DNA of 64,000 nucleotides from a virus (lineage: Duplodnaviria; Heunggongvirae; Uroviricota; Caudoviricetes). The position numbers and the translations under genes are program-made. The stretch is taken from positions 1-64,000 of IMG/VR virus record IMGVR_UViG_3300038379_000173; one strand, given 5' to 3'. The notes beneath the pieces are model-generated. The model ran no database searches. It was not told the DNA's origin and saw only the letters and a program-made list of their open reading frames with translations. Shown here one piece after another: positions 6,827-35,601 of the stretch. How positions within the stretch are numbered: position 1 is the first letter of the stretch; every line of letters starts with the position of its first letter.

Positions 6827-6961
6827 AAAAAGTCGAGACGAGTAGCTTACTACTTCAAATTATTTAGGCGTAACTCTTCAGATGACACACTACGTGGCCT
6901 ATACCAATATTCTTTTATTTATCCCAATACATCAAAGTGGTTACCGTCTACTATCCCGCTG

Positions 6962-7213: not shown

Positions 7214-7224
7214 GTTGCGCAGCT

Positions 7225-7950
7225 ATGGACGAACATTCACTTTCCGCCGACGTTATATTAGAAGTTATCCATGGTTCAAGGGCCTATGGTACCCACCATC
7301 CTGATAGCGATGTAGACTACAAAGGGGTAGTGTTGCCAACAACCCCTGCCATTTATTTTGGATTTGGACACTTCGAACAGAAAGATAAATGGGCCGACGG
7401 CGTTGACCGTGTATGGTACGATTTGCGCAAGTTTTGCCGACTGGCCCTGATGTGTAACCCTAACATCATTGAGGTCCTTTGGGTGCCGCCAGAATGTATT
7501 AAGGTGTGCACCGATATTGGCCACGAACTCATAGAAATGCGCCAGAGTTTTCTTTCCAAAAGAATCTTTAGGTCATTTGCCGGGTATGCTTATGACCAGG
7601 GAAAGAAATTGGCGGCAAAGGTAGAAAGAGGCGAACAGCCAAACTGGAAACATGCTATGCATCTAGTGCGCCTTTCTAGGATGGCGAACGAGATAGCAAG
7701 TAATGGTTCCATTATAGTACGGCGGCCGGACGCAGAAGAATTGAAAGAAATACGCGCCGGCCGTTGGAGTTACGACAAAATTATGGCGCATGTCGAGTTC
7801 CTAAAGGAATCCACGCACGTCCTTGAGAGTAGTAGTCCGCTACCAGTCCACCCTAATGATAGGGGCGTTGAGGAGTGGGTGGTTGGAGTGATACAACGGA
7901 GATTGCTTGGCGATGATATATATCGAAATTATGGATGCGTTAAAGAATGA
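7225..7950 (+). CDS. pol-beta-superfamily nucleotidyltransferase
   Basis: G-S-x9-D-S-D-V-D motif (GSRAYGTHHPDSDVDY) near the N-terminus; track ORF starts at TTG 7168, ATG at 7225. Confidence 0.7.
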   Translation: MDEHSLSADVILEVIHGSRAYGTHHPDSDVDYKGVVLPTTPAIYFGFGHFEQKDKWADGVDRVWYDLRKFCRLALMCNPNIIEVLWVPPECIKVCTDIGHELIEMRQSFLSKRIFRSFAGYAYDQGKKLAAKVERGEQPNWKHAMHLVRLSRMANEIASNGSIIVRRPDAEELKEIRAGRWSYDKIMAHVEFLKESTHVLESSSPLPVHPNDRGVEEWVVGVIQRRLLGDDIYRNYGCVKE

Positions 7951-8245
7951 GCCACGGCCAGGCGGATTGAGTAAGTTGATGAGGATACTAAACTCAACAC
8001 TCTTAGCTGGCCATTTTAATGCAGTTGATAAGGTATTAAAGATTGCTGACCCGCGCGAACTATCGGTGCGCGCCTCTATAGCACTTCTAACTGTCACATT
8101 GTCTGGGACCGACCAAGGATTACCATCTCGCCTGGGTTTTTTTCAACGCACTCTCGAACACTTTGAATCTATCGGTGAAAACGATATCAGGGGGCTATTG
8201 GGCGGCCTAGGCCCACTACCAGCTAAATATACGGAGATACAATGA
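7907..8245 (+). CDS. hypothetical protein
   Basis: ORF overlapping the nucleotidyltransferase 3' end; start uncertain. Confidence 0.4.
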   Translation: MAMIYIEIMDALKNEPRPGGLSKLMRILNSTLLAGHFNAVDKVLKIADPRELSVRASIALLTVTLSGTDQGLPSRLGFFQRTLEHFESIGENDIRGLLGGLGPLPAKYTEIQ

Positions 8246-8544
8246 CACTAATAGAAAAACTTCATGCGTTGTGGCCAGAAACATACAAAGGGTCAAAAAC
8301 TCTTCGTGGTTTCGAAATCTACCTGTCAAAAACAGGAAATATAATAAGGGTAATAGTCTCGCAAATGTATGAATTTGTTGATTGTTCTTTTAAAATTCTC
8401 AAAGGGCTGGCCGACATTTTTGGCACAGAATCAATCGACGTGGAAGGTTACAGTACGAGTGGCTGCGAGACGTGCGATTTTGGCTCGTCTTACATCAAAA
8501 CCTTCATAATTGAAAAAGCCACTAAACACACAGATGAGATATGA
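8242..8544 (+). CDS. hypothetical protein (100 aa)
   Basis: ATGA overlap with upstream gene. Confidence 0.5.
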   Translation: MTLIEKLHALWPETYKGSKTLRGFEIYLSKTGNIIRVIVSQMYEFVDCSFKILKGLADIFGTESIDVEGYSTSGCETCDFGSSYIKTFIIEKATKHTDEI

Positions 8545-8723
8545 CTAAGAAACATTTCGTTGAAATCGCACGTATTATCAACGGTGTCACCCCGCACGAA
8601 TATGGAACGTGTGATGGTCGTCGTGTTGCCATAGAGATAGCTGAACGTCTTGCTACATTTTTCTCAACACTCAACACCCATTTTGACCGCGCCGTCTTTA
8701 TGGCCGCGGCTATCCCGGAGTAA
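8541..8723 (+). CDS. hypothetical protein (60 aa)
   Basis: ATGA overlap with upstream gene. Confidence 0.45.
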   Translation: MTKKHFVEIARIINGVTPHEYGTCDGRRVAIEIAERLATFFSTLNTHFDRAVFMAAAIPE

Positions 8724-8725
8724 AA

Positions 8726-9391
8726 GTGCTCGATAGAGATACAGTTATAAAAAGAGCTGCCGATAACCTAACACGCATTTGTAATCTATCAAATGCCATA
8801 GAAGAAGTAATATCATCAAAAGACCACGTATTGGTGGGCTCAGCGGTATATAAAGCCCTTTGGGGAATAAACAAAAATATCCGTCACATATGCACCAACT
8901 ACGATTTTTTAGTCTGGGACCGTCCGGATGTCACAAAAGTAATGGCGGCATTTACCAGTGTGGGACTGACTCCGCAAGGTATAAGTAGCTCTTATGGCGG
9001 AAGTGCATTACAAATTACTCTCGCTGGCGAATTAACTGTCGATGTCGTATATGCCCCAGCTATGTCTTGGGACTGTCTCAATGAATTTACAATCCGAACA
9101 CCTCTAACGCACCAGGCCGTCTTCTTTTCAGAAGTGTCCTATCGACGTGGAGTATCTGCAAGTTTGTCCCTACAAGGCCCTGGGATTGACGATGCAATGG
9201 CCGGACAATTTAGAATCAATCCCACTGGGGATTTTAAACCCTCCGTACAATATCCGACAGTAGAAAGCTATGCTGCAGCAATAGCCGCGCGCACTGGATT
9301 TAAATGGTTAGACAGCACACCAGAAAAACACAAGTGTCGTTGTGATATTGTCACTTTGATGGGCCGCGGATGTAAATGTGGCGGGATATAA
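8726..9391 (+). CDS. hypothetical protein (221 aa)
   Basis: GTG start with ggag upstream. Confidence 0.5.
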   Translation: MLDRDTVIKRAADNLTRICNLSNAIEEVISSKDHVLVGSAVYKALWGINKNIRHICTNYDFLVWDRPDVTKVMAAFTSVGLTPQGISSSYGGSALQITLAGELTVDVVYAPAMSWDCLNEFTIRTPLTHQAVFFSEVSYRRGVSASLSLQGPGIDDAMAGQFRINPTGDFKPSVQYPTVESYAAAIAARTGFKWLDSTPEKHKCRCDIVTLMGRGCKCGGI

Positions 9392-9394
9392 AAT

Positions 9395-10129
9395 ATGAAC
9401 GACTTCGAAAAACTCATTGCGGCCCTCCCGGCCCACCGTTTGTATGTCGATACTGACGGCGCCCAAGGCGCTCGAATTGAGATGGTGGGCGCAAACCTCT
9501 GGGGCGCAAATCTCAGGGGCGCAGACCTCAGGGGCGTATACCTCAGTGGCGCAAACCTCTGGGGCGCAAACCTCGAGGGCGCAAACCTCAGGGGCGCAAA
9601 CCTCAGGGGCGCAAACCTCTGGGGCGCAAACCTCTGGGGCGCAAACCTCGAGGGCGCAAACCTCAGGGGCGCAAACCTCTGGGGCGCAAAGCTCGAGGGC
9701 GCAGACCTCAGGGCTGCAAATCTCGTGGGCGCAAACCTCGGGGACGCATACCTCGGGGGCGCAAATCTCGACGGCGCAGACCTTTCTAACGCCACTCTCC
9801 CAGACTTTCAATTGCCAGAGGGAACGTTGACCGCCTACAAGTTGTGCAACGGTATCTTGGTTACCCTCGAAATTCCGGCAGAAGCACGCCGCACTGCTTC
9901 GCTTGTCGGGCCCAAATGCCGCGCGGAATTCGCTATCGTGCGCCACGTGGACCATCCGTGGAAGGTTGCACGTAGTAGTGCTCAGCGTCCTCATAATACG
10001 CCCGAGATTGTCTACACGGAGGGCTCTACCGTTTTCCCGGATTTGTTTAATGACGACATTCGCGTAGAGTGTACGCACGGCGTACATTTCTACAGGACTA
10101 AGGAAGAAGCATTGGCGAGCGGGTTTTGA
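9395..10129 (+). CDS. pentapeptide-repeat protein with ~100-aa C-terminal domain
   Basis: about 20 consecutive GANL(W/R/E) pentapeptides; the C-terminal domain is duplicated at 1..315. Confidence 0.85.
   Translation: MNDFEKLIAALPAHRLYVDTDGAQGARIEMVGANLWGANLRGADLRGVYLSGANLWGANLEGANLRGANLRGANLWGANLWGANLEGANLRGANLWGAKLEGADLRAANLVGANLGDAYLGGANLDGADLSNATLPDFQLPEGTLTAYKLCNGILVTLEIPAEARRTASLVGPKCRAEFAIVRHVDHPWKVARSSAQRPHNTPEIVYTEGSTVFPDLFNDDIRVECTHGVHFYRTKEEALASGF
9488..9786 (+). repeat. 15-bp tandem repeat array (ggcgcaaacctcNNN, ~20 units) inside the pentapeptide-repeat CDS
   Basis: visible periodicity encoding G-A-N-L-x; also explains spurious long antisense ORFs 9268..9795 and 9308..10201. Confidence 0.85.
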
Positions 10130-10130
10130 T

Positions 10131-11261
10131 ATGAAATTACAGCCACTAAATGTCCTTTTAGACGGTAAATTAGATGGTCCGCTAGACCCTATTAGTGTCA
10201 TCCGTCACTTTCATCCATCTCTCCCGCTCGTTGGCCTAAAATACCATAAAACAGAATCCCCAAAATTCCATCCCATCGTGCGCCAATGTCGCGGAACTGT
10301 GTTGGAGTTACCAACCTTTCGTATAGTTGCCCGCCCTTTCAACCGCTTCTTTAATCTCCACAAGGATGTTGACGGCCAGGAAGGCTTCACTTGGAATCAC
10401 TTTACAGCCGAAACGAAGGAAGATGGCACACTTATCATCGCATTCAATTACGAAGGAAGATGGTTAATTAAAACAGGGGGTAGTTGGGCTCTCGGCAATA
10501 TTACCGCAAATGCGCCAACGTGGCAGCAGGCATTTTTTGATATCCTGCCGGTAGCTAATTTTTCTGTTTTAGACCCAGCCTATACTTATATGTTCGAATT
10601 GTGTACGCCATACAACAAAGTAGTAGTAAAATACGACCAACCCAAAGTCTTTCTTCTTGGTGCTATAAATACCTCGTCTGGCTGGGAATTAGACCATTCC
10701 GTGCTGGATTATATTGCTAGCCGCCTTGGATGTGCGCGACCTACAGTTTTTAGTTGCTCAGGCAATAGTGATTTGAAACGCCTAGTTGATAGTCTCTCTA
10801 AAGGCGATGTCAAGGAAGGTTTCGTACTACGCGATATAGCGTGCAGACGTATCAAAGTAAAAACGGCAGAATATCAAGCCCTACACCATCTAAAGGACAA
10901 CGGCAACATACTGCTGCCGCGGCGCTTGGCCGCCCTTGTGCTCTCTTCGAGGGAAAAAGAAACTCTCGCCGTATTCCCTGAAATGGCCGGGGCTCTGTCA
11001 AAGGTATCCGCAGACCTATATAATGCTATGGCGGACGTAGAGAACCTTTGGTGGGCCCACCGACAATTAAGCCGCAAGGATTTTGCGATAGAAATAAAGG
11101 ATACCCCATTTACGTGGGTGCTCTTTGGTCTCTATACAAATCCACCGAGTGATGTTCGCAGCACAATCTATGCAGCATTTGCGAATAACGTCGAGAAGGT
11201 GGCCCAAAAATTGTGGGGCGGCCAGGTGTTTCAGTTTGATTGTGCAGCGGCAGATGAATAG
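10131..11261 (+). CDS. rnlA: T4 Rnl1-type RNA ligase
   Basis: 376 aa (T4 Rnl1 is 374 aa); nucleotidyltransferase motif I K-E-D-G-T (ETKEDGTLI) matches T4 Rnl1 KEDGSL. Confidence 0.8.
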   Translation: MKLQPLNVLLDGKLDGPLDPISVIRHFHPSLPLVGLKYHKTESPKFHPIVRQCRGTVLELPTFRIVARPFNRFFNLHKDVDGQEGFTWNHFTAETKEDGTLIIAFNYEGRWLIKTGGSWALGNITANAPTWQQAFFDILPVANFSVLDPAYTYMFELCTPYNKVVVKYDQPKVFLLGAINTSSGWELDHSVLDYIASRLGCARPTVFSCSGNSDLKRLVDSLSKGDVKEGFVLRDIACRRIKVKTAEYQALHHLKDNGNILLPRRLAALVLSSREKETLAVFPEMAGALSKVSADLYNAMADVENLWWAHRQLSRKDFAIEIKDTPFTWVLFGLYTNPPSDVRSTIYAAFANNVEKVAQKLWGGQVFQFDCAAADE

Positions 11262-13121: not shown

Positions 13122-13448
13122 GTGAGCGATGAAATATTGCGGCGGGCCCACAGGAATTTTGTTTCTGGCGCTCTAGACCCTCTTGAATATTATCAATTGA
13201 GATTACGTTATGGCCTGAGAGACCCAAAAGTTACGCCTGTGGTTGGTGATATTGTGTTAGTATACGGTGAAACTAAAGTTTTCTGGAAAAGAAAAGTGAC
13301 GCATGTAGATAAAGATGGTATTTATTGGGTTTTCACAGAAGCGTGTGATGAAGAATATCTAAGTTACTCTTCTTGTTCAGGAAGTAAATTACCACAAAGT
13401 TTGTGGTACTCAGAATTCTGTTATCCTCTTGTCTATGGTGATGAATGA
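13122..13448 (+). CDS. hypothetical protein
   Basis: GTG start inferred from the upstream in-frame stop; weak RBS. Confidence 0.35.
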   Translation: MSDEILRRAHRNFVSGALDPLEYYQLRLRYGLRDPKVTPVVGDIVLVYGETKVFWKRKVTHVDKDGIYWVFTEACDEEYLSYSSCSGSKLPQSLWYSEFCYPLVYGDE

Positions 13449-13870
13449 GGGGCTATGTCGCCATTGGACTATTCTGTCCTTCCAAAGACGTTAATATTGG
13501 CGGCACAATGCGCGCAGCTTACTGTTACGGGGCCGGCTTAGTCGTAATCCAAGGAGTATATAAGCGTTACAGCACCGATACTGTTGCCGCCCACCGACAT
13601 ATTCCAACAGTACTCTGCACTGACATCCTAACCAACATCCCCTATGATTGTGTGCCTGTCGCCGTAGAGATAGTAGAAGGAGCGCGACCTTTGCCATCCT
13701 ACACACACCCACAAAGAGCCTTTTATATCTTTGGCCCTGAAGGCGGCTCGTTACCAGAGAGAATTTTGAAAGGTTGCCGCGATGTTGTTTCTATTCCAAC
13801 GCGCGCCTGTATGAATTTGGCGGCCACAGTAAATGTTGTATTGTATGACAGGGCGGCTAAAGGTCAATGA
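13445..13870 (+). CDS. SpoU-family (SPOUT) RNA 2'-O-methyltransferase, minimal TrmH/TrmL-like
   Basis: 141 aa; motifs IFGPEGGSLPE and CMNLAATVNVVLYDR typical of SPOUT methyltransferases. Confidence 0.7.
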   Translation: MRGYVAIGLFCPSKDVNIGGTMRAAYCYGAGLVVIQGVYKRYSTDTVAAHRHIPTVLCTDILTNIPYDCVPVAVEIVEGARPLPSYTHPQRAFYIFGPEGGSLPERILKGCRDVVSIPTRACMNLAATVNVVLYDRAAKGQ

Positions 13871-16280: not shown

Positions 16281-18374
16281 ATGAAATTGCAAGTGCCCGA
16301 CACCCCAGTGGTACGCTCAGGACCCTTTAAGGAAACCTCCTTCGGTTTTGGTGACCAACGAGTCATCATGGACATTCTTCGCCGCAGGATGTACCCAAAT
16401 CCTATAAAGGCTATCTGCCAGGAAGTGATGTGTAATGCGCGGGATGCTAATAGAGAGGCTGGGAGGGGCGAAGAACCGATTGTTGTGCGTATACCAACCG
16501 AACTTGCGCCAACCTATGAAGTCTCGGACCACGGACTAGGCATAACCCCCGAGAGAATGGAGGGCGTTTTCGTTCTTTATGGCGCCAGTACAAAGCGCGC
16601 TGACAACATCCAAACCGGCGGCTTTGGATTGGGCGCAAAAACTCCGTTTGCCTACTCAGACTCCTTCACTATTAGGACAACCAGTGATGAATCTGATGGT
16701 GTTAGGCGGACAAGACTCTATAGTGCCTATATTGATGAAACTCAGCTAGGCAAATTGGCTGAGATGTCAGTTGCAGTTACCCCGGACATGCCAACCGGCA
16801 CAACAATAAGTGTGGCAGTTAAACCAATTGACTTTCGCGCGTTCCTTACCTACTCCATTAGAGCCTCCAGGTGGTGGACACATAAACCATCCATACTACA
16901 CGCTAAAGTTACATGGCCAAATAGTTCTCCTGTCGTATGTGGCACTGACTGGTTCATTTCAAATGATGGTGATAGCGGAGTTTTGGTCGACGAAATTGAA
17001 TATCCACTCAATTGGGACTATACAGACAAAAGAAACGTTTTCCACTATATCTCATTGTTTATTAAATGCGGCGCAGCCGAAGTAAGCGTAAATGCTAATC
17101 GCGAAGAATTAGACTATAACGCAACCACAGTAGAATTCCTCAGAACTCGTATTGATGGAGTAATTGAGGAAATAAAAGAGAAGATAAATAAGGAAGTAGA
17201 AAGTGCGCCAAACCTCCTAGAGGCCATTTACACTTGGGAGAGCAAATCCGCCGCATTGGGCAACCTCTTCTATGGAATTACGCCAACGTGGCGTGGCAAA
17301 AAACTCTTTCGTACTATAGACTTTGGTCTCTGTCCACTATTATCAACAACTGATAAACTAGCAGACCATTTGTCGTTCACTAACGTGGAACGCGCAGTAG
17401 TAATGTATGGCAAACCAATTCGCTCATATCATAATAGGGCTTATATATCTGTCAAAACAAGGTGTCTTTGCATTGAAAATGATACTGGTAAGCCGCTAGA
17501 TAAGCGTATGCTGGTAAGCAGTTTTACGGCCGACGCTACCCTCGATTACATTTGGGTTGTAACGTTTAACAGTCAACACGGCCGCGATTGGCTTGAGAAT
17601 ACCTATTCGTGGAGCGACCTAGCTCCAATCAAACTCTCCACTCTCCCAATTCTCCCACTCCCAGTCCCGGATGGAGATGAGGAGAAGGAGGAGGAAAAGT
17701 TAGTAAGAAGGACACGTCCAAAGGGTTACAAAATCATTCCTGTCAAGCGTATCCAGGATGATGGGACAATAGTTAATGACGAAAATAAAAAAGTCGTTGA
17801 CCAGACTGGCGGCGTGTATGTATTAAAGCGCGACAACTATCTCTGGATGGTGAATGGAAAGAAAGTGCGCGCCGAAACAGTAGTAGAGGCCGCCAAGTGG
17901 CTCGGAGTCATTCCATACGTAATTTTAAATAGACACCACGAAAAAATATCTGTAAATTGGGTAAGTCTAGATTGCGCTCTCGAAAAACGCTTTAAAGAAA
18001 TACAGGACAGTGATGATTATAAAGCGTATATGACGTATGGAGAAGATGCTCATGTTGCAACCCTTTTTGGTAAGGTAACCATTAATGCTTTAAGTGCACA
18101 TAAATGGAGAGTAAGTAATTCATTCACCGAATGGCTAAACAAAACTCGTTTAGTGTTAGAAGGTCAGAAAAAACGAAACAGTTTGCACAAATATTGGACA
18201 ATGCTTTATAACACACCGCTTCTGACACCAGAAAACAAGGGTGTAGAGTTATTAGAAGAAGTTCATAAAGAATTTCCGCTTTTTATGTTCTTGACTAGGT
18301 CGTATCGTTTAGATTTTGATACGGCAACCAATGACCTAATTTCGTATTTTGAATTGAAAGGAACACCAGTATGA
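16281..18374 (+). CDS. rIIA: rIIA-like protein with N-terminal GHKL-type ATPase fold
   Basis: 697 aa; N box EVMCNARDA, G1 box DHGLGI, G2 box GGFGLGAK; followed by a translationally coupled rIIB-sized gene. Confidence 0.6.
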   Translation: MKLQVPDTPVVRSGPFKETSFGFGDQRVIMDILRRRMYPNPIKAICQEVMCNARDANREAGRGEEPIVVRIPTELAPTYEVSDHGLGITPERMEGVFVLYGASTKRADNIQTGGFGLGAKTPFAYSDSFTIRTTSDESDGVRRTRLYSAYIDETQLGKLAEMSVAVTPDMPTGTTISVAVKPIDFRAFLTYSIRASRWWTHKPSILHAKVTWPNSSPVVCGTDWFISNDGDSGVLVDEIEYPLNWDYTDKRNVFHYISLFIKCGAAEVSVNANREELDYNATTVEFLRTRIDGVIEEIKEKINKEVESAPNLLEAIYTWESKSAALGNLFYGITPTWRGKKLFRTIDFGLCPLLSTTDKLADHLSFTNVERAVVMYGKPIRSYHNRAYISVKTRCLCIENDTGKPLDKRMLVSSFTADATLDYIWVVTFNSQHGRDWLENTYSWSDLAPIKLSTLPILPLPVPDGDEEKEEEKLVRRTRPKGYKIIPVKRIQDDGTIVNDENKKVVDQTGGVYVLKRDNYLWMVNGKKVRAETVVEAAKWLGVIPYVILNRHHEKISVNWVSLDCALEKRFKEIQDSDDYKAYMTYGEDAHVATLFGKVTINALSAHKWRVSNSFTEWLNKTRLVLEGQKKRNSLHKYWTMLYNTPLLTPENKGVELLEEVHKEFPLFMFLTRSYRLDFDTATNDLISYFELKGTPV

Positions 18375-19432
18375 CAACAGTAGTTAATTTTCTCTTCACT
18401 CCTCAAAGTGCCATTATCATTACAGATGATGGGCGCGCACATACGGCTCTAAAAACTTCCGCGGACTTCCAACGTATTACTGGGCTGCTCCTGGCCGGCA
18501 AGAAGCAAGAAGCTCTAGAAATGCTGGATAAGTCAACGGCAATCAAAAAAGTATCTAAGGGTCATTTTAATATTGTGGATGGTAATGTAGTAATAGATGG
18601 TGAAGTGCTGCCGCCCGCCTTGTCTAACAAACTCATCGCCCTGCTGGAAAGCGGCCAAGATACAAGCCGCCTTGAGTCCTTCTGGGACAACTTGTCACTT
18701 AATCCTTCTGAGCAGTCCAAGGCAGACCTCTTTAAATTCCTCGAGGCTAACAAATTCCCACTGACTAAAGATGGGTGTTTTTTGGCGTACAAAAAGGTAC
18801 GTGACGATTGGAAAGATTGTCATACTGGCTCGTTTGATAACTCTCCTGGGAAGGTCGTAAGTGTGGATAGGGCTAATGTAGACCCAGATAGTTCGCGCAC
18901 TTGTTCGTATGGCCTACACGTTGCCGCCCACGAGTATGCAAAAGGATTTAGCTCCGGCCGCCTACTGGAAGTTAAGGTAAACCCAGCGGATGTAGTTTCA
19001 GTGCCGCCCGACCACTCTCAGCAAAAGATTCGGACATGTAAATATGTTGTGCTGCGCGAAGTTCCAGAAGACCAACCAGAATGCTCAACTGAGATTTTCG
19101 ATGGCGACGAAGGGGCTGCCCCGATTGTCGAGGCGCTAGGCGTCGTAAAGGTCCATGTGGATGGAGAGGGTCGACTCCGCATCCCCGGGAAGTTTGTAAG
19201 GTCTATTGGATGTGGGGTTGGACACACCGTAAAAGTTGTGGCGTCTAATGATGTTGTGACAGTTGAGAATATCGAAACGCCCTACGCATCACAAGATGCA
19301 GAATTGGCCACCTACAAAGTTCAGGATGATAACTCAGTGCGCCTCAGTGCATCGGTGCTAGACCAAGCTGGATTTGGTAGGCGCTCCGTTATTAACGTTG
19401 AGAAGGTAGACGGAGTCCTATGTCTTTCGTAA
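18371..19432 (+). CDS. rIIB: rIIB-like protein
   Basis: 353 aa, ATGA-coupled to the rIIA-like gene; call rests on size and synteny, weak on sequence. Confidence 0.45.
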   Translation: MTTVVNFLFTPQSAIIITDDGRAHTALKTSADFQRITGLLLAGKKQEALEMLDKSTAIKKVSKGHFNIVDGNVVIDGEVLPPALSNKLIALLESGQDTSRLESFWDNLSLNPSEQSKADLFKFLEANKFPLTKDGCFLAYKKVRDDWKDCHTGSFDNSPGKVVSVDRANVDPDSSRTCSYGLHVAAHEYAKGFSSGRLLEVKVNPADVVSVPPDHSQQKIRTCKYVVLREVPEDQPECSTEIFDGDEGAAPIVEALGVVKVHVDGEGRLRIPGKFVRSIGCGVGHTVKVVASNDVVTVENIETPYASQDAELATYKVQDDNSVRLSASVLDQAGFGRRSVINVEKVDGVLCLS

Positions 19433-19608
19433 ATTGCCCTAATCACGGTCCGGATGGTAAACAACGCGGTATTTTATACACGCAGCGCCAAAATTGTCTT
19501 CTTTGTGCTAAGACTCCCGAACATCCCAATAAATGCTCCTGTGGCGAAGAATGGGACGAGGAAGATAGCACAAAAGTCTGTTGGAGATGCGACGGAAATA
19601 GAGAATGA
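19420..19608 (+). CDS. small Cys-rich protein (62 aa)
   Basis: ORF with CPNHG...CLLC...CSCG...CWRCDG. Confidence 0.4.
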   Translation: MSFVNCPNHGPDGKQRGILYTQRQNCLLCAKTPEHPNKCSCGEEWDEEDSTKVCWRCDGNRE

Positions 19609-19614
19609 TTTGCA

Positions 19615-19700
19615 CAGGGCTGGCCCGGCCCTGGCGCACGGGCGCGAAGCTGAGCGGGGTCCCCACGGGGTCGAAGCGCGAGCAGGGCGGCCAACACATA
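19615..19700 (+). terminator. GC-rich cluster of stable hairpins (terminator or regulatory RNA)
   Basis: cagggc-tggcccg-gccctg (19615..19633), gcgc-acgg-gcgc (19634..19645), ggggtccccacgggg; GC far above the local average; lies between two + genes. Confidence 0.4.
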
Positions 19701-19713: not shown

Positions 19714-20937
19714 ATGACCATCACTCGCCTCATTAAAACAGACGCAGATGCTAACAATAATAAGTTTTGGGAAGCCGTCCTAGACCCCAATGGCGATAAA
19801 GTAATGTGCCGCTGGGGTAGGGTTGGCGCAAACGGTCAGCGCAAAACATTCAACGGCGGCCAACATTACATTGATAGGAAGGTCAAAGAAAAAACTTCCG
19901 AAGGATATGTTATCGCACAGGTTGTTGGAGGCGGCGAAACTATCACATGTGATACTAGTGCCATCAAAACTATTGCACGTCAGCAAATTGTAGCAGACAA
20001 AGAAACAGTCGCCCTTGTAGATGAATTGGTTGCGTGGAACATCCATAATATAACACAAAAATCTACGATGACAGTAAGTGTCTCATCTGGTACTATCTGT
20101 CTGCCGTCCGGTCTAGGTGTGCTGACACAGTCCGCAATAGATGAGGCCCGTAGACTCCTAAACACCATCGGCAGTAGTTCCAGGACAAATGACCCGGCTG
20201 GACACAAAACTGTTATCAACAAATACCTTTCCCTCGTTCCACAGATTGTTCCGAGAAAGCGCGGCTGGATTAATACCATTTTTTCTACACCCGAAGAAAT
20301 TGCCGCTCAAGAACATCTTTTAGATTCGCTCCAGGCAACTATTCAGACCCTTACACCGACTCAATCTTCTAAGGTCTTTGATGTTACGCTGAACAAACTC
20401 CAAGATGGGAATGAAGTTGGTCGCATTACAAGATTGTATGACGCAACGCGTCAAAACATACACCAGTCGTGTAGTCTACGACCAATCAATATCTATAAAA
20501 TAACTATGGGTGCAATGCGAGAGCGATATAACAAGTGCCAAGTTGGTAACCCAATGGAGTTATGGCATGGAACTGGAGTTGGCAACCTATTATCTATTTT
20601 GAAATGCGGCCTCATAATCCCATCTCATGCTTCGCATGGCCGTAACTTTGGCAATGGAATATATTTAACTGACCAATCTACAAAGGCACTTAATTATGCT
20701 GCTGGTTATTGGGATGGTAGGAGAGAGAAGCGATGTTTTATGTTTTTGGCAAACGTAAAAATGGGCCGGCCGTATACACCAGGGCCATATGACAGGAGTA
20801 ACTTCCCTCGGAGCGGCTATGACAGTGTATATGCCAAGGCTGGCTTCTCTGGGATTTTGAACAACGAAATGATTGTGTACGATACAGACCGAGTCGATTT
20901 AACATTCATTGTTGAATTTTCTGAAAGGGCATTATGA
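19714..20937 (+). CDS. PARP-like ADP-ribosyltransferase (N-terminal WGR domain + PARP catalytic domain)
   Basis: WGR: FWEAVLDPNGDKVMCRWGRVGANGQ; catalytic: ELWHGTGVGNLLSILKCGL (H-G-T), GNGIYLTDQSTKALNYA (Tyr), NNEMIVYDTDRVDL (Glu) align to PARP1 LLWHGSR / GIYFAD / YNEYIVYD. Confidence 0.85.
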   Translation: MTITRLIKTDADANNNKFWEAVLDPNGDKVMCRWGRVGANGQRKTFNGGQHYIDRKVKEKTSEGYVIAQVVGGGETITCDTSAIKTIARQQIVADKETVALVDELVAWNIHNITQKSTMTVSVSSGTICLPSGLGVLTQSAIDEARRLLNTIGSSSRTNDPAGHKTVINKYLSLVPQIVPRKRGWINTIFSTPEEIAAQEHLLDSLQATIQTLTPTQSSKVFDVTLNKLQDGNEVGRITRLYDATRQNIHQSCSLRPINIYKITMGAMRERYNKCQVGNPMELWHGTGVGNLLSILKCGLIIPSHASHGRNFGNGIYLTDQSTKALNYAAGYWDGRREKRCFMFLANVKMGRPYTPGPYDRSNFPRSGYDSVYAKAGFSGILNNEMIVYDTDRVDLTFIVEFSERAL

Positions 20938-21683
20938 TTACTATTGACGATATCGCTGATTCTATTGAGACAATTGTGGACGACTTGACATATTCAGGCG
21001 AGATGTTTAGTGCATTCGATATCACACGTTTAGTGCGTATCGCACTACCTACAACTAAGGTAATGCATAAAACTGTCCGTGACATTTTGCGTCGCGAAAT
21101 TAATTTCACTTCCACGGGATATACTGAACAAACCTATCATGGAGATAGTTTTTCAACCCAAGTGTGGGTACCGCCAGGTGGCGATGTAAATAACTACAAT
21201 CCCGATGGGCACAAACCCTCCGTACCTGCGGTCATAAAATTTATGGCACCAAAAGTGCCCACAACTTATACTGCAACAAACGCAGTGACAATAAATGTAT
21301 CAAACGCAACATTAAAACAGAAGCGTAGCGGCCCAAAGGCTCACTTTAAAGACCAAAAGGACGGTAAGGTATACTGGACTGCAACTCCCAACGCATCAGG
21401 TAAATTGGTAATCACAAAGGATATGATTTTAACTCTCCTTGGTGCATCAATTACTTCACCACTACCATTGGGTACTCTTTGGATTGCTCCGCGCGCACAT
21501 AACCAAGATGGCCTAGTAGTGCTGACCAAGCAGCCAGCCAATCCAGCTTGGTCTATGGGAAGGGCTATCAAGCGCTGTAATATCACAGTGCCAAAGAAAG
21601 CATTGGCCAAAGCTCGTCTAACTACCCCAATGAAGGTCACGGTAACTGATGGAGTCATTGTCATTACCTCCGCTAATGCTTAG
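20934..21683 (+). CDS. hypothetical protein (249 aa), translationally coupled to the PARP-like gene
   Basis: ATGA overlap; Thr/Val-rich. Confidence 0.55.
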   Translation: MITIDDIADSIETIVDDLTYSGEMFSAFDITRLVRIALPTTKVMHKTVRDILRREINFTSTGYTEQTYHGDSFSTQVWVPPGGDVNNYNPDGHKPSVPAVIKFMAPKVPTTYTATNAVTINVSNATLKQKRSGPKAHFKDQKDGKVYWTATPNASGKLVITKDMILTLLGASITSPLPLGTLWIAPRAHNQDGLVVLTKQPANPAWSMGRAIKRCNITVPKKALAKARLTTPMKVTVTDGVIVITSANA

Positions 21684-23078: not shown

Positions 23079-23381
23079 ATGGTACACCAAGATAAATGCA
23101 AAGAAAAGCTGATATTGCCCCTTGAGGCTCTGGACGAAGAATTGCGTGAGGATATTAAGAAGTGCGCCAAGGGCTGCTACCAACTAAGATTGGTCCAAGG
23201 CAATGCGTGTTGGCTCGGGAATGATTTGCAAGGCAAAGCAAAAACTTGGGCCAACAAATACAATGTTTCGCGCTATAGATTAATGAACCGTATTGTTAAT
23301 GTAATAAGCCACAAATACGTTCCAATCTTAATCTCTAATTTTGCTGATTGGCGCGCACACCTAGTATTTGAAATAAAATGA
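23079..23381 (+). CDS. hypothetical protein, paralog family Z copy 1
   Basis: motif LQGKAKTWANKYNVSRYRLMNRI matches the next gene. Confidence 0.55.
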   Translation: MVHQDKCKEKLILPLEALDEELREDIKKCAKGCYQLRLVQGNACWLGNDLQGKAKTWANKYNVSRYRLMNRIVNVISHKYVPILISNFADWRAHLVFEIK

Positions 23382-23683
23382 CATACTATATCAGAACTCT
23401 CTTGGATATCCCCGAAGAAATTCGCGCTGCTATACTAGAATGTCCAAAAGGGGAATATCAAAGCAATCTCCTAAACGGCACTGAAACATGGAGTGGGAGT
23501 AGTCTAAAGGGCAAGGCCAAAAAATGGCTGACGCGCTATTCCGCCTCTCGAAATAACCTTATAAAGCGCATCAATATGGCGATTGAACCATGTGGATATG
23601 AAGCTTATACTCTCCTAATACTTGATGAAACCTCTAGAAGATACAAAAGGACCCTGGTCATTGAACGCCCCTCTGACATTTAA
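23378..23683 (+). CDS. hypothetical protein, paralog family Z copy 2
   Basis: ATGA overlap; motif LKGKAKKWLTRYSASRNNLIKRI. Confidence 0.55.
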   Translation: MTYYIRTLLDIPEEIRAAILECPKGEYQSNLLNGTETWSGSSLKGKAKKWLTRYSASRNNLIKRINMAIEPCGYEAYTLLILDETSRRYKRTLVIERPSDI

Positions 23684-24605
23684 CGACTTCGTCGGCAACG
23701 CCCACGTTGTTGAAAAACTCAAATTACTCACCGAACGTGCGGCCAATGATAGTTTTGCTCGCATCCCAGATATGGCTTTCCTTGGGCCGCCAGGTCATGG
23801 CAAGAATTTTTGTGCCAAAATCCTGGCAGACAAACTAAAGAGAGGCTTTGTAGAGATTAATTCAACCACGGTGCGCGACCCATTTGTATTCCGCCAATTC
23901 ATTGTTAATGGTGAATACATTTCCAGTGGAGTAATTATCCATTTAGATGAATGCCACCAACTGCCGCGACGTATCCAAGACAATTTGCTAAGTGCTCTAG
24001 AGCACCCACGCCAACTCCACACCGCACATAAGGACCAATTGTTCAAGGATTCTTTGCCAGAAAATCTCTCGTTTATTTTCTCAACTACTCACGCTGGAAA
24101 TTTGCGAAAGCCTCTCCTGTCTCGCCTTGAGACAATAGAATTCCTCGAGTATACCGAAGACAACCTCATGGAGATGGCGGCTAAGTATCTACACAGACAA
24201 TATGGGTTGGCTCTAGACGCCATTGAGCCTAAGGCGCTAGCTGAATTAGCGAAACGGAGTCGTTCAGGCCGCCAAACTATTAGGTTCTGTGATAACTTAA
24301 TGCGCCTTAAGGAACTAAACGGTTGGGATAAAATAACACATGATGCGGCCGTCCAATGCTTTAAAATCATTGGAGTAGATGCAACTGGACTGACGCGAGT
24401 TGACAGAAAGATGCTAGCATATATGGCAAAAGCAGGGTCACACGTCGGTCTAGAAACACTGGAGGCCGTGCTTGATATTTCGAAGAAGGAAATATTGAGC
24501 AACATTGAGCCGTTTTTATTACGCAAGGGCCTCATGGTTCGCCACACCAGCGGGCGTCTTATAACACCACTTGGCAAGGCCCTAATGGAGGCGGCAAATG
24601 ACTAG
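23622..24605 (+). CDS. ruvB: RuvB-like AAA+ ATPase (Holliday-junction helicase family)
   Basis: Walker A FLGPPGHGKN, Walker B IIHLDECH, RuvB-like winged-helix C-terminus (TRVDRKMLAYMAK...GLETLEAV...IEPFLLRKGLMVRHTSGRLITPLG). Confidence 0.75.
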   Translation: MMKPLEDTKGPWSLNAPLTFNDFVGNAHVVEKLKLLTERAANDSFARIPDMAFLGPPGHGKNFCAKILADKLKRGFVEINSTTVRDPFVFRQFIVNGEYISSGVIIHLDECHQLPRRIQDNLLSALEHPRQLHTAHKDQLFKDSLPENLSFIFSTTHAGNLRKPLLSRLETIEFLEYTEDNLMEMAAKYLHRQYGLALDAIEPKALAELAKRSRSGRQTIRFCDNLMRLKELNGWDKITHDAAVQCFKIIGVDATGLTRVDRKMLAYMAKAGSHVGLETLEAVLDISKKEILSNIEPFLLRKGLMVRHTSGRLITPLGKALMEAAND

Positions 24606-25335
24606 CGAGAATGATTCACTAAAGGCAAATACAGTATCCGCAAAAAAACCTGACATAACAGAGTGGATGCGCGAGAATAATAGAATGTTTGTGCATATAG
24701 CCGGCAAGTGTTCTACATCGACCAAAGAATTTGGTGCAGATGAAGTGGATGTACACACACACGAGGAAGTGTTAGCTCAACGCGATTTGTGTCAAGAAGC
24801 TCGCTTGCATGCATTGCATGCACTTGAATCATTTGATTATGAGAACTTTCCAATAGAAAAATTAGGTAATTATGTTTATACTGTCGCACTTAATGCTACT
24901 CGTGAGTATGTCATGGACAATCAAAATAATATAAGGGTGCCCGGCTCAGCACGTAAGGAAAAACAAAAACTTAATGAGTTGTCAAACAAGGAACTCATTC
25001 AACTACCAAAATCTATCAATCTGCCGGTATATAATGATAGTGATAGACACGATAGTCCTGGATATATGAGTCTATCAGGTTTGATAGTAGACCCTGCGCC
25101 AACTCCTGATGTTGTGGTGGATGAGAAGGAACAAATTAGTATACTAATGGAAGAACTTGAAAGTCTGCGGCCTGAAGAACAAAAAGTATTGAAGGCAAGA
25201 TGGTTTAACGGTAGCACCCTCGATGATATTGCACTCCGTGAAGGTGTTAGTCGGCAAAGAGTTCATAGTTTACAGAGTAAAGCGATGGAGAAATTACGCA
25301 AGAAAGTCCTGACTCGACTAAGTGAGGAAGAGTAA
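24598..25335 (+). CDS. sigma-70 family RNA polymerase sigma factor
   Basis: C-terminal region 4.2 HTH (STLDDIALREGVSRQRVHSLQSKAMEKLR); region-2-like segment. Confidence 0.65.
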   Translation: MTSENDSLKANTVSAKKPDITEWMRENNRMFVHIAGKCSTSTKEFGADEVDVHTHEEVLAQRDLCQEARLHALHALESFDYENFPIEKLGNYVYTVALNATREYVMDNQNNIRVPGSARKEKQKLNELSNKELIQLPKSINLPVYNDSDRHDSPGYMSLSGLIVDPAPTPDVVVDEKEQISILMEELESLRPEEQKVLKARWFNGSTLDDIALREGVSRQRVHSLQSKAMEKLRKKVLTRLSEEE

Positions 25336-30308: not shown

Positions 30309-30858
30309 ATGGTTCCAATAACATACTACGACAACTTTGTCCTAGAGCCCAATAAAGTCCTGGCCGCCCTTCAAAAAGACCTCGCATGGGAGCGCCATGG
30401 AGACACGCCGCGCTGCGAATATTACATCAATGATTACGGCGCGCCATATACATATGGGAGGGGCTTGGGGGCAGCGCACATATAAACCTGGTCCATCCCA
30501 TCCTCTGGTGGATGAAATAAGGGTCGCGGCCGAGGAGTCGCTTCATTATACCTTCGACACTTGCTTCCTTAATCGCTATTTGAATCAAAGAGATAGTTTA
30601 GGATGGCATGCCGACAACGAGCCCGAAATGGACAATGAAAGGCCCATCCTAACAGTTTCACTTGGGGCCGAGCGCGAAATTTGGTTCCGTCCTTTAAATA
30701 ACCTGAGTGACGTTACTAAGGTCCTATTGCGGAATAGCTCCTTGTGTGTCATGGCGCCTGGTATGCAACAAACTCACCAACATCGTATACCAAAAGCATC
30801 CTTTATATGTGGAGAGAGAATTTCATTGACGTTCAGGGGGTATGTGCGTGGAAGATGA
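30309..30858 (+). pseudogene. alkB: AlkB-like 2OG-Fe(II) dioxygenase split across two frames (30309..30485 and 30397..30858); +1 frameshift in G-run ~30456..30470
   Basis: N-part MVPITYYDNFVLEPNK...YGAPYTYG ends at TAA 30483; C-part carries LGWHADNEPEMDNERPILTVSLGAEREIWFRP and a second His (HQHRIP); could be a sequencing indel or a real frameshift. Confidence 0.55.
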
Positions 30859-30984
30859 CAATCGTGAGATGTGGTATGTGGCGCTAATCATCTTGGTGGT
30901 TGGTGCGCTAGTTGGAGCCGCAACGTGCTCAATACCACGGCCCGACAGCATCATCAATGAACACAAAGAAAGGTCGAAGACTAA

Positions 30985-31320
30985 ATGACTGAATGGCAGA
31001 AAATTGGCACCATTGGCGTGGATGCGGGTATGTGTTGGATTGGCGACCCATGCTACATCATTGGGAAAGATGCTACAGAGTCGTGGGATACGTGGCGCGA
31101 CTTTCTAAGAGACCTCGGCCGCCCATACAAGGGTTTTAAATCATTTCCCTACAAAATGGGCCACGAGGGACGCGGTGTAGTTGTTGATTCTGGCTTCGGA
31201 GATGGTGTTTATCCAGTTATGGCGCGATTTGATTCTGGCTGTCGTGTAGCCGAAGTTCGTGTGATTTTCATAAGGGAAGATGAAGATAAAGAAAATTGCG
31301 ATGATGACTACGACCCATAG
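30985..31320 (+). CDS. hypothetical protein (111 aa)
   Basis: ORF. Confidence 0.5.
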   Translation: MTEWQKIGTIGVDAGMCWIGDPCYIIGKDATESWDTWRDFLRDLGRPYKGFKSFPYKMGHEGRGVVVDSGFGDGVYPVMARFDSGCRVAEVRVIFIREDEDKENCDDDYDP

Positions 31321-31406
31321 ATTGACAAGCCGCCAGACGAAAAACTCTTAAAGGCCATCGGAGAAGCCGACCAAGCAGCTGAAGGTGCTCATCCTGAGGT
31401 CACTCC

Positions 31407-31790
31407 ATGGACTTAATTCCACACAACAGTTGGTTCTCAATAGAGGAGTTGGACCTACAGTCTATTGGATTGACATTAGGACAAGCTAAGCCGGCGGCCC
31501 ATAGTTTAGCTAAACGTGGATTGCTAGATGAAAAAGTAATAAAAAGTGCGCGACTTATTCTTACAGAAAAAGGCTTTCTTGAAACCATTATGGGTCTCTC
31601 AGAGTTACACATCATGGATGTATTATTTGAACGCGAAGAAAGAGAAAAGGATAAACCTCCAGAGGAGCAGGTTTGGATGAGTCCAGATGAGGTTATTGAC
31701 GAGGTGGTCAGAAGAAGGCAAGTTAAACTTCGTGAATGGCTTGACAAAGCTGCCGATGACACTCATCCTGAGGCTACACAATGGACATAG
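31407..31790 (+). CDS. hypothetical protein (127 aa)
   Basis: ORF. Confidence 0.5.
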   Translation: MDLIPHNSWFSIEELDLQSIGLTLGQAKPAAHSLAKRGLLDEKVIKSARLILTEKGFLETIMGLSELHIMDVLFEREEREKDKPPEEQVWMSPDEVIDEVVRRRQVKLREWLDKAADDTHPEATQWT

Positions 31791-32020
31791 TTTTATTGAA
31801 TGAAGCCAACGACATACGACATTCATTTCAAATTTGGTTAGATGACAACGGTGATGACTCAATTTTAGATGACCTGATAGTTGATAAGGCTATTGATGAA
31901 TTAGAAAAGGCATTCTGTGCGGTTTTAGGCTGCGTGCCGACCCAAGACCATTGCGGCCGGCCCGAACATGATTTTTGTATGTGGTGCCGCAAACCGACAC
32001 CTGGCCTAGCGACACGATGA
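31781..32020 (+). CDS. hypothetical Cys-containing protein (79 aa)
   Basis: ORF. Confidence 0.4.
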   Translation: MDIVLLNEANDIRHSFQIWLDDNGDDSILDDLIVDKAIDELEKAFCAVLGCVPTQDHCGRPEHDFCMWCRKPTPGLATR

Positions 32021-32529
32021 CTAAAATTCGTAACGTGATAGACCACTATGCATACTGGCGCACAGAAGCTATTAAGGCTGAACTAAATACACGCCGCCAT
32101 CCGTTTGGGATATTAATCTCAAACCTTCAAAATGATTTTAATATTGGCACTGTAATACGCTCGGCCAACGCCTTTCTGGCGCGCGAAGTAATTATTTGCG
32201 GCAGGAAAAAGTATGACCGCCGCGGCACTGTAGGAACCCACCATTATGAGAATTTACGCTGGGTGAAGGAAGAAGATGTGGCCGCCCTGGGCTACCATTA
32301 CAATCTCGTGGCCATTGACAATGTGGATGGAGCCGAACCTATTGAGACCTTCAAATGGCCGACGAACCCTCTCATGCTGTTCGGACAAGAACAGGGCGGG
32401 CTGCCTTCTTCTTTGTTGTCTATTGCCGCCCACAAGGTTTACATCCGCCAATATGGCTCTGTGCGCTCATTAAACGTCGGGAGTGCGGCCTCCATTGCAA
32501 TGTATGATTGGTGTGTGAAGAACGGATGA
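32017..32529 (+). CDS. SpoU-family (SPOUT) RNA 2'-O-methyltransferase, TrmL-like
   Basis: ATGA-coupled start; motifs LFGQEQGGLP and RSLNVGSAASIAMYD. Confidence 0.7.
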   Translation: MTKIRNVIDHYAYWRTEAIKAELNTRRHPFGILISNLQNDFNIGTVIRSANAFLAREVIICGRKKYDRRGTVGTHHYENLRWVKEEDVAALGYHYNLVAIDNVDGAEPIETFKWPTNPLMLFGQEQGGLPSSLLSIAAHKVYIRQYGSVRSLNVGSAASIAMYDWCVKNG

Positions 32530-33026
32530 GCAGGAAGAGGGTAGGTAATAGTCGTTGTAAGTGGGCACGCGGCCCAAAGATTGTGCCTGATGCACAAAAT
32601 CGTTTGCCTATTGGCTGGGGTACCAAGTACAGAAGTTATGACGAGCGATGTAGGCAGTGGTTGCTGCGGCCCAACAAAGAAAGGGCCGCCTGTCCACTCC
32701 CACGCTTCGAACAACCGCCAGTAATTACTTACCTTCCTATAGAAGGTTTATGTAGCAGGTTTATATTAGACGGGTTGTCTTTATTTTGGTCGAATGGACA
32801 CGCCTATATAGGCAAGCGGGAAATTGAGAGATTTAGGCCCCGCAAAGGCTTCTGGTATAAAGAAGCATTCGGTACATTCTACATTGGACAGACCGTCCAA
32901 GAAGCACTAACGTGGTTCGAAACCCAAAGTTTTGGGATTATCAATTTTATACTTGGAATGTTAGCTTACAATGATTTTCGTAGACAAATTCAAAAGTTTC
33001 TACAAGAAATCGGTGAAACGGAATGA
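32526..33026 (+). CDS. hypothetical protein
   Basis: internal ATG of track ORF 32508..33026. Confidence 0.4.
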   Translation: MSRKRVGNSRCKWARGPKIVPDAQNRLPIGWGTKYRSYDERCRQWLLRPNKERAACPLPRFEQPPVITYLPIEGLCSRFILDGLSLFWSNGHAYIGKREIERFRPRKGFWYKEAFGTFYIGQTVQEALTWFETQSFGIINFILGMLAYNDFRRQIQKFLQEIGETE

Positions 33027-33406
33027 GTGAGATAAATCGCGAAGACACGATTAAGTTGCTACGCGCCGCTCTCTCTGGGTCGGAGTCGTCTAGCGTCCTA
33101 GAGATTCTAAGTAAGGCTGCGACGTGCAATGGTTCGACTGAAGCAACTCTATTGGTGTTAGAAACCCTATCATGCCAGCCAACCATAGAGATGCAAGAGG
33201 CTCTCTGGGAAGTTATAGAGGATTGTTTGGTATTTAAACATTACGACTGTATGCTTCCTGCTATAAAAGCCGCGAAGTTTTTGGTTGAACCTTGGCGCAA
33301 AAACATCAAGGAGTTGTTAGCGGCCTACATTACAGATGTCTATGATAACTATGACGATTTAGACGAAAAAACAAAGGCCGCGGCCAAGGCGTTCTTGGAG
33401 GAATAA
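33023..33406 (+). CDS. hypothetical protein (127 aa)
   Basis: ATGA overlap. Confidence 0.45.
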   Translation: MSEINREDTIKLLRAALSGSESSSVLEILSKAATCNGSTEATLLVLETLSCQPTIEMQEALWEVIEDCLVFKHYDCMLPAIKAAKFLVEPWRKNIKELLAAYITDVYDNYDDLDEKTKAAAKAFLEE

Positions 33407-33887: not shown

Positions 33888-34002
33888 TAATTGGATTGAT
33901 ATAGGAAAAAACCAACATATACTAAATCTTCCAAACGGATGTATTTATGTTGGTTTGAGATATGAGAATTATGCTGTTTTTATTCCTGGAGTAAACGTAT
34001 CA

Positions 34003-35583: not shown

Positions 35584-35601
35584 AGAAATGACACATTAAC
35601 C

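Follow-up and report, generated by a model that had tools for sequence, protein, structure and literature searches.

The stretch analysed here, which we refer to as the window, comprises 64,000 nucleotides (positions 1 to 64,000) of the IMG/VR virus record IMGVR_UViG_3300038379_000173, a member of the Caudoviricetes. Downstream of an rIIA/rIIB-like gene pair it encodes a poly(ADP-ribose) polymerase (PARP) homologue of 407 amino acids (aa), the stop codon of which overlaps the start codon of a 249 aa gene, hereafter the partner. The two genes are linked in phages and in bacterial chromosomes, and probably form a two-component ADP-ribosylation module gated by DNA ends. The genes and domains concerned are as follows:

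16281..18374, + strand: rIIA homologue with a GHKL ATPase N-terminus (PHROG 612, E=1.2e-73; HATPase_c, E=1.5e-4)
18371..19432, + strand: rIIB homologue (PHROG 609, E=2.7e-66, aa 11-235)
19714..20937, + strand: PARP homologue, 407 aa, ATG start and TGA stop, with WGR, probable helical (HD) and ADP-ribosyltransferase (ART) domains (Pfam, PHROG 23333, AlphaFold2 (AF2), Foldseek)
19726..19911, + strand: WGR domain, aa 5-66, motif CRWGRVG (Pfam PF05406)
19954..20352, + strand: probable helical (PARP_reg-like) domain, aa ~81-213 (PARP1 HD alignment, AF2 helices, weak PF02877 match)
20383..20925, + strand: ART catalytic domain, aa ~224-404 (Pfam PF00644)
20566-20568, 20662-20664 and 20866-20868, + strand: codons of the catalytic triad H285, Y317 and E385
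20934..20937, + strand: ATGA stop/start overlap of PARP and partner, read from the sequence
20934..21683, + strand: partner gene, 249 aa, with a conserved N-terminal domain (N-domain), a disordered linker and a putative AbrB-like C-terminus
20943..21167, + strand: partner N-domain, aa 4-78, motif F-S-A-F-D-I-T..R ... V.H..V (hidden Markov model (HMM) A3, E=2.5e-18)
21366..21680, + strand: partner C-terminal region, aa ~145-249, tandem AbrB/MazE-like units

Judged by its domains and conserved residues, the 407 aa open-reading frame (ORF) almost certainly encodes a genuine, active enzyme of the PARP1-3 type, and its identity as a PARP is near certain. A preliminary description, made from the sequence alone, had proposed a WGR domain fused to a PARP catalytic domain of the H-Y-E clade, which was borne out: the three catalytic-domain motifs it quoted are all present in the ORF, and Pfam matched both the PARP catalytic domain (PF00644, aa 234-355, E=1.6e-21, 77.2 bits vs. 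a cutoff of 26.7) and the WGR domain (PF05406, aa 5-66, E=1.2e-10, 41.8 bits vs. a cutoff of 22) above their cutoffs. A probable helical domain is additional to that description; the Pfam match to PARP_reg (PF02877, aa 133-207) was weak and sub-threshold in the window protein (E=0.015, 15.9 bits vs. a cutoff of 26.8), and a match to the same family is precomputed in many of its relatives. ART-PolyVal, the sole further Pfam match, fell far under its cutoff, NCBIfam returned no significant match for the window PARP, and PHROG 23333 (‘polymerase’, i.e. PARP) spanned almost the whole protein (aa 7-402 vs. positions 9-382 of 383 in the profile, E=3.4e-57).

In a HMMER comparison with PDB sequences, the helical and ART domains of human PARP1 aligned with aa 134-330 (E ~8e-11), the PARP1 helical domain corresponding to aa 134-230, and the C-terminal NNEMIVYD of the window protein fell opposite YNEYIVYD, with Asn in the window where PARP1 YNEY has Tyr. 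By this alignment H285, Y317 and E385 match the PARP1 motifs HGS, GIYF and YNEY and stand opposite its catalytic His, Tyr and Glu, which we take to be His862, Tyr896 and Glu988. The triad was invariant in two alignments (56/56 sequences and 85/85 phage relatives), and K324, presumably the counterpart of PARP1 Lys903, and Y328 were each kept in 85/85 phage PARPs. Within the WGR motif, G35 was retained in 83 and R36 in 81 of the 85, with Y, W or F in the first motif position, as is likewise found in bacterial PARPs (PMC5966428). An AF2 model built on 56 homologues (predicted local distance difference test (pLDDT) 87.6, predicted template modelling score (pTM) 0.80) placed helices at aa 81-116, 139-174 and 193-213 and superposed on WGR-catalytic fragments of PARP1 and PARP2, its best Foldseek matches being chains of these enzymes on DNA breaks (4dqy_C and 4opx_C, template modelling (TM) score 0.72-0.73, E ~1e-22). 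The WGR-HD-ART core of human PARP1, PARP2 and PARP3 appears to be shared, with the catalytic His, Tyr and Glu aligned, yet the window protein has no zinc fingers, BRCT domain or N-terminal tail, possesses a shorter helical domain and is only ~18-20% identical to the human proteins.

Taken by itself, the enzyme adds a fairly divergent new member to a family known before from phages and bacteria. The preliminary description had held an H-Y-E PARP to be unusual in a phage, a claim that does not survive the GenBank annotations, PHROG 23333, three papers and the 86 viral contigs with PARP relatives, many of them 140-545 kb, found in an IMG/VR scan. A tblastn search of GenBank phages turned up 14 records with a full-length relative (27-36% identity), plus an uncultured 595-kb phage with a partial one; nine of them carry the annotation poly(ADP-ribose) polymerase or ‘ADP-ribosylation’. 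The full-length homologues include XacN1 ORF414 (BBA65562.1), Xoo-sp13, FBKp34 gp111 (Klebsiella) and phi4:1 gp031, all from large phages, the annotated ones including XacN1, FBKp34 and phi4:1; the FBKp34 record names WGR, PARP_reg and PARP catalytic domains, the same set as in the window protein. A word-index search returned 510 proteins at E<=1e-5, of which nearly all among the 120 listed were 400-440 aa long with the same domains, and a protein identical to the window PARP, on a 167,041-bp contig, bears the JGI label ‘poly [ADP-ribose] polymerase’. PARPs have been listed in Aeromonas phage Aeh1 and Cellulophaga phage phi4:1 (Perina 2014, PMC4245714), jumbo-phage PARPs have been noted with the XacN1 protein as an example (Iyer 2021, PMC7824862), and, within the H-Y-[EDQ] clade, the PARP family has been counted as one of the commonest viral ART families (Iyer 2022, PMC9503650). 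In a scan of bacteria limited to one genome per species, relatives occurred at 64 loci, with hosts including Armatimonadota, Blastocatellia, Abditibacteriota, mycobacteria, Variovorax, Paracoccus plasmids and clostridia; the closest were from Armatimonadota (41-43% identity to the window protein). The 8 kb around the PARP gene gave no megablast match to GenBank phages, and the phage is therefore not closely related to any deposited genome.

The added value of the locus is the partner family, its N-domain tied to WGR-PARPs and fused to an rIIA homologue in one phylum. Across the junction the sequence reads ...GCATTATGATTACT..., and the ATGA coupling of the 249 aa ORF noted in the preliminary description is real, the pairing being conserved across phages and bacteria. 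Pfam, PHROGs, NCBIfam and PADLOC gave no significant match for the partner, and PADLOC nothing for the PARP, the partner or two partner relatives. It appears to represent a previously undescribed protein family in the literature searched and in these four profile libraries. Family-wide, the N-domain (~75 aa) carries the motif F-[ST]-x-x-D-[IV]-T..R ... V.H..V. Its AF2 model, based on a two-sequence alignment, was of moderate quality (pLDDT 72-83) and had a helix-helix-helix-hairpin topology, for which Foldseek returned the winged-helix proteins PadR, RTP and LmrR (probability up to 0.93, E at least 0.15); the N-domain is thus predicted to be winged-helix-like, and its profile found nothing meaningful among PDB sequences. 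A Pro/Thr/Ser-rich linker, predicted to be disordered, follows, and the C-terminus in the window clade consists of tandem G-R-L-x-I-P... and N-I-R-I... units. Three partner relatives matched MazE_antitoxin (best E=5.5e-5) and one matched AbrB-like (E=3e-4) in Pfam, a profile of the partner C-terminus (A5) compared with the PDB gave AbrB (E=0.011), MazE-type antidotes (E=0.025-0.044) and MraZ (E=0.21), and AF2 confidence for this region was low. In other partner clades the C-terminus is another small module (K-Q-I-Q-S-A-I-K...) or is missing altogether. On these alignments the N-domain is the constant part and the DNA-binding-type C-terminus is exchangeable, an arrangement that would fit an adaptor with a PARP-specific N-domain. 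HPF1, the accessory factor of PARP1/2, is an analogy in concept only, as a separate small protein working with a WGR-type PARP; it is not known to share any sequence or fold likeness with the partner, which by prediction is winged-helix plus AbrB-like, an architecture that HPF1 is not known to have.

The sole word-index relative of the partner (49% identity) is likewise immediately preceded by a WGR-PARP and an rIIA/rIIB pair. Comparison of the genes downstream of distant PARPs brought out the shared N-terminal motif, and an HMM search iterated across every ORF in the PARP loci reached convergence with 52 of them. With the HMM of the N-domain alignment (A3, ~75 aa), phage loci were scanned with 5-kb flanks, and the N-domain was found in 50 of 87, always on the PARP strand and always downstream; counted from the listing, 42 of the 50 matches were <=1 kb and 23 <=100 bp from the PARP. 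In the 64-kb window the partner alone matched this HMM. At bacterial PARP loci the N-domain was present in 15 of 64. In 14 cases its gene shared the strand of the PARP gene and directly followed it or overlapped its end, and in one it lay directly upstream; the bacterial loci inspected were chromosomal two-gene units, not prophage. An exhaustive HMMER scan of 1.84 billion representatives, independent of the PARP and queried with a profile of only the window partner and its one close relative, recovered 64 cluster representatives/families at E<=1e-3, nearly all 110-325 aa long and matching via their N-terminal ~100 residues. We sampled seven independent partner homologues, five of which lay <=2 kb downstream of a WGR-PARP, in one of these with a LAGLIDADG endonuclease gene inserted between the two, whilst the other two had no PARP within 4 kb. 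Mapped onto the PARP tree, partner presence required 8 parsimony changes vs. a shuffled mean of 27.9 (minimum 20), and some PARPs in the partner-positive clades share just ~30% identity with the window protein. The PARP-independent scan, the contig look-ups and the tree test argue that the linkage is not circular. These results make the linkage old and maintained, in regions of otherwise fluid gene order: aside from the PARP, every other neighbour family (within 5 kb) is present at fewer than 15 of 85 loci.

A word-index search with the N-domain alignment A3 gave no matches. Three partners compared with GenBank phages by tblastn yielded one match, ~1.6 kb downstream of the PARP match in the uncultured 595-kb LR756511, and no cultured phage bearing a partner was found in this search. 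Hidden N-domain homologues in partner-negative clades were considered and rejected: hhalign probabilities were <1% each for the 150 aa ORFs of L067-L071 together with phi4:1 gp030, a ~260 aa family (cluster 13) and a 212 aa family, with positive controls at 99.4-99.6%. Downstream of the PARP, XacN1 (Xanthomonas) encodes a von Willebrand factor A (vWA) protein and phi4:1 a 154 aa ORF followed by a DNA ligase. In phage contig L161 (809-6577) the order is NAPRTase, PARP, LAGLIDADG homing endonuclease, partner, four small ORFs and Macro; in L112, a Blastocatellia chromosome, an SOS-response-associated peptidase (SRAP) gene (6824-7501) immediately follows the PARP-partner pair; and in L091 two N-domain genes (2373-3128 and 4477-5151) lie downstream of one PARP, which suggests a partner duplication.

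The rIIA/rIIB-like pair upstream of the PARP, also noted in the preliminary description, is confirmed by its PHROG 612 and PHROG 609 matches. The C-terminal ~100 aa of rIIB (19133-19429) were matched by the partner HMMs (E=7.6e-24 and E=2.5e-8) and align with partner C-termini in A5, and the window rIIB therefore seems, by sequence comparison, to bear the same AbrB-like module as the partner C-terminus. The rIIB of L003 and L012 also carries an AbrB/MazE-like C-terminal tandem module, whilst that of L049/L073 (279 aa) is shorter and apparently without it. A second connection is found in three Abditibacteriota, one with a complete 7.4-Mb genome, where a chromosomal WGR-PARP is directly followed by a gene for a 1260-1280 aa fusion of the N-domain to an rIIA-like protein:

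L129, 6365-10162 (IAD-21, AP024152.1): N-domain/rIIA-like fusion
L127, 6373-10155: N-domain/rIIA-like fusion
L128, 6505-10347: N-domain/rIIA-like fusion

In these fusions the N-domain (aa 15-75) comes first, then an rIIA-like GHKL region (PHROG 612, E=5.6e-30 and 4.6e-36), and the tail is long and rich in Leu and Ala; the GHKL ATPase part of the window rIIA (aa 38-342) aligned with the L129 fusion by BLASTP (E=5e-17), and the L129 locus is flanked by housekeeping genes (LpxD, oxidoreductases). Proximity of rIIA/rIIB to the PARP (<=5 kb) was observed in the window and in L003, L012, L049, L073 and L037, at four positions on the PARP tree; this count alone is not above chance, and the domain fusion is the stronger argument.

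Neighbour genes were counted within 5 kb of the PARP in the same 85 loci. An ATP-dependent DNA ligase occurs in 13 of them, plus phi4:1, where the order is tRNA nucleotidyltransferase, PARP, 154 aa ORF and DNA ligase, and a T4-type RNA ligase in 10. Loci that combine DNA ligase and PARP include:

L092, 4977-8023 (Cellulophaga phage phi4:1)
L067-L071
L005, 4324-5421
L006, 220-1329

Ligase proximity, counted here in loci related to one another, may hint at a repair link. A 171 aa family at eight loci resembles TARG1-type macrodomains (TARG1/OARD1 and a macrodomain protein, E=3-5e-4 in a phmmer search of the PDB); Pfam did not confirm it, and we regard the ‘macro’ label as likely. An NMNAT-type/Nudix protein and a Nudix protein each occur at five loci, and NAPRTase, NAD synthase and Macro genes are present in loci reached via the partner. 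Such neighbours would fit an enzyme that spends nicotinamide adenine dinucleotide (NAD+) and acts on nucleic-acid ends.

The window itself is an accessory, early-type region of a ~167-kb phage, with a dense set of RNA-repair and modification genes (6284-11261, 13445-13870 and 30397-38124) and, further, PhoH, pentapeptide-repeat and SPFH proteins. Its other annotated features are:

6284-6826: metallophosphoesterase
7168-7950: RlaP nucleotidyltransferase
10131-11261: T4 Rnl1-like RNA ligase
13445-13870: SpoU methylase
23622-24605: RuvB-like AAA+ ATPase
24598-25335: phage sigma factor
30397-30858: 2OG-Fe(II) oxygenase
31975-32529: SpoU methylase
34586-35251: metallophosphoesterase
37624-38124: HAD_SAK_2 protein

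The pair of RuvB-like and sigma factor genes recurs 2-3 kb downstream of the PARP in L003, L005 and L006. Just upstream of the RuvB-like gene lie two adjacent ~100 aa ORFs (23079-23381 and 23378-23683), paralogue-like by eye with the motif ...GKAK.W...Y..SR..L..RI..., for which PADLOC and NCBIfam had no match. Between rIIB and the PARP, overlapping the rIIB stop, a 62 aa Cys-rich, zinc-ribbon-like ORF is present (19420-19608, + strand; CPNH...CLLC...CSC...CWRC). The preliminary description had placed a GC-rich hairpin cluster just upstream of the PARP start; the stretch at 19612-19700 is indeed GC-rich (79% vs. 45% in the window), but nothing except its base composition spoke for hairpins, the predicted fold being no more stable than that of shuffled sequence (z=-0.17). 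With no significant Rfam match to this stretch and a fold at shuffle level, a structured RNA was rejected; the window contains no tRNA, and scans for sigma-70 promoters and terminators around the genes remained at background level. A second GC island lies at 33790-33850, both islands being short, intergenic and 70-79% GC. Elsewhere, a near-perfect tandem 15-nt repeat (GGGGCGCAAACCTCN) at 9561-9761, within the ORF 9395-10129, specifies some of the pentapeptide repeats in a Pentapeptide + DUF5758 protein.

Taken as a whole, we consider it reasonably probable that the PARP and its partner constitute a two-component, DNA-end-gated ADP-ribosylation module. The WGR domain would sense nucleic-acid ends, and the helical domain would block the NAD+ site as long as the WGR domain is not engaged; once it is, the H-Y-E ADP-ribosyltransferase domain would use host NAD+. 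That the WGR and helical domains make the enzyme responsive to nucleic-acid ends, and that it consumes NAD+, is the simplest inference by analogy with enzymes of the same layout. Tested bacterial enzymes are HaPARP (Herpetosiphon aurantiacus) and CdPARP (Clostridioides difficile CD160), which have the WGR-helical-catalytic layout predicted for the window PARP, share its H-Y-E triad and by experiment are DNA-dependent and make poly(ADP-ribose), at 47-52 kDa (PMC5966428); the window protein, with 407 aa, should be ~46 kDa, near the size of these bacterial three-domain PARPs. No partner gene has been described for the latter, which we compared with the window protein by their published description, and their bacteria have PARG, whereas none was seen in the 64-kb window. 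By this analogy DNA breaks or ends are the most likely trigger of the enzyme, which would attach ADP-ribose to itself and nearby proteins, probably as chains. The partner, co-translated with the PARP, may be its second subunit, acting as a DNA-bound adaptor, a regulator and/or a preferred acceptor. As a self-contained module, the pair occurs in large phages and some bacterial chromosomes; in this phage it is most likely used to manage DNA ends or damage during infection or to counter host defence.

Several observations weigh against this picture. The PARP has no partner within 5 kb in 37 of the 87 phage loci, so the enzyme cannot be strictly dependent on it, and all the cultured phages checked (XacN1, FBKp34, phi4:1, RAS14 and Xoo-sp13) are among those without. 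The AbrB-like assignment of the window partner is indirect, made by way of relatives and a profile. Cluster HMMs detected no gene for removing ADP-ribose or salvaging NAD+ (TARG1-like macro, Nudix, NMNAT-type/Nudix) in the 64 kb examined of the 167-kb contig. As to chemistry, the H-Y-E triad is needed but insufficient for polymer synthesis, PARP3 and PARP4 being mono-transferases in spite of it, and the window enzyme may make polymer or single ADP-ribose units. At the position we take to be equivalent to PARP1 Ser904 the window protein has Ala; its relatives have Ser in 62 cases and Ala in 23, and the variation thus appears to be tolerated. The literature searched yielded no experiments on a phage PARP.

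The preliminary description had suggested host takeover or anti-defence acting on NAD+, which is plausible; the position next to rIIA/rIIB and among RNA-repair genes would fit an accessory or conflict role, as would the genes for NAD salvage, Macro and Nudix proteins that neighbour the PARP or partner in related loci. More specific alternatives to the DNA-end-gated module agree less well with the retention of the sensor domains, the copies in bacterial chromosomes and the pattern of partner conservation. The first is a takeover effector in the manner of T4 Alt, ModA and ModB, which would modify host RNA polymerase, translation factors and the like, with the partner an unrelated early regulator sharing the operon. 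The T4 proteins are, like the window enzyme, phage NAD+-dependent ADP-ribosyltransferases, and phage PARPs have been suggested to act like other phage ARTs but with the addition of chains (Iyer 2021, PMC7824862); the early-type accessory setting a few kb upstream of a sigma factor and RuvB-like ATPase, and the transcription-factor-type domains of the partner, would also suit such a role. Alt, ModA and ModB belong to the R-S-E clade and have neither WGR nor helical domain, whilst the window triad is H-Y-E and the window PARP had no Pfam match to the R-S-E (T4 Alt/Mod) family. Against a takeover role, WGR and helical domains are kept throughout the family, which speaks for an enzyme activated by nucleic acid and not for one that is constitutively on; the PARP-partner unit is also found among bacterial chromosomal housekeeping genes, where takeover would be senseless; and a gene sharing the operon by chance would hardly stay linked so persistently as the partner does, such that we consider this explanation unlikely.

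A toxin-antitoxin or abortive module, with the PARP as toxin and the AbrB/MazE-type partner as antidote and autorepressor serving superinfection exclusion or addiction, is suggested by the matches of the C-terminal module to MazE_antitoxin, AbrB and ‘addiction module antidote’ structures, by the isolated two-gene unit in bacterial chromosomes and by the overlapping, toxin-first gene order, which resembles that of DarT-DarG. In the partner, however, it is the N-domain that is conserved, the AbrB-like part being swapped or absent in many members, and the PARP carries a probable autoinhibitory domain of its own; the many phages with a PARP and no partner are hard to square with an obligatory antidote, and PADLOC recognised neither gene nor the two partner relatives. 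We give this reading a slim chance, and a similarly low one to NAD+-centred anti-defence, in which NAD+ and ADP-ribose pools would be drained or redirected to blunt NAD+-using immune pathways. The NAPRTase, NAD synthase, NMNAT-type/Nudix, Nudix and Macro genes near PARP or partner in related loci and the adjacency to the rIIA/rIIB counter-defence locus are in its favour, but such neighbours equally fit compensation for NAD+ spent by a signalling PARP, none was detected in the window, and a DNA-gated enzyme would be an unlikely tool for removing NAD+ in bulk. Mere conserved synteny with no link in function, the 249 aa gene being an independent small DNA-binding protein, could accommodate the two of seven partner homologues without a PARP within 4 kb and the 37 partner-less PARP loci, but is highly improbable given that gene order is otherwise fluid, with no other family at 15 of 85 loci, and that the partner stays immediately downstream even of PARPs ~30% identical to the window protein, in both phages and bacteria.

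The rII genes bring a further, more speculative reading of the partner into view. In the literature rIIA is placed at the heart of a counter-defence system that is poorly understood (PMC7824862); rIIB acts against RexAB and triggers bacterial gasdermin systems, and in Acinetobacter phage 133 another anti-defence gene adjoins rIIAB (PMC10312443). Based on the Abditibacteriota fusion, the contiguous order of rIIA, rIIB, PARP and partner, and the AbrB-like module common to rIIB and partner, the N-domain could conceivably be an adaptor dedicated to connecting WGR-type PARPs with the rII system, although we hold this to be doubtful. If true, it would place ADP-ribosylation signalling and rIIA/rIIB in one pathway and offer a testable handle on rII biochemistry; the biochemical function of rII has been unclear since its days as a classic genetic system, and the link, weakly supported as it is, would be valuable if confirmed. 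For the PARP family, the partner gives the first concrete hypothesis on what such a PARP binds, modifies or answers to, and the two together make a simple two-protein system for reconstitution.

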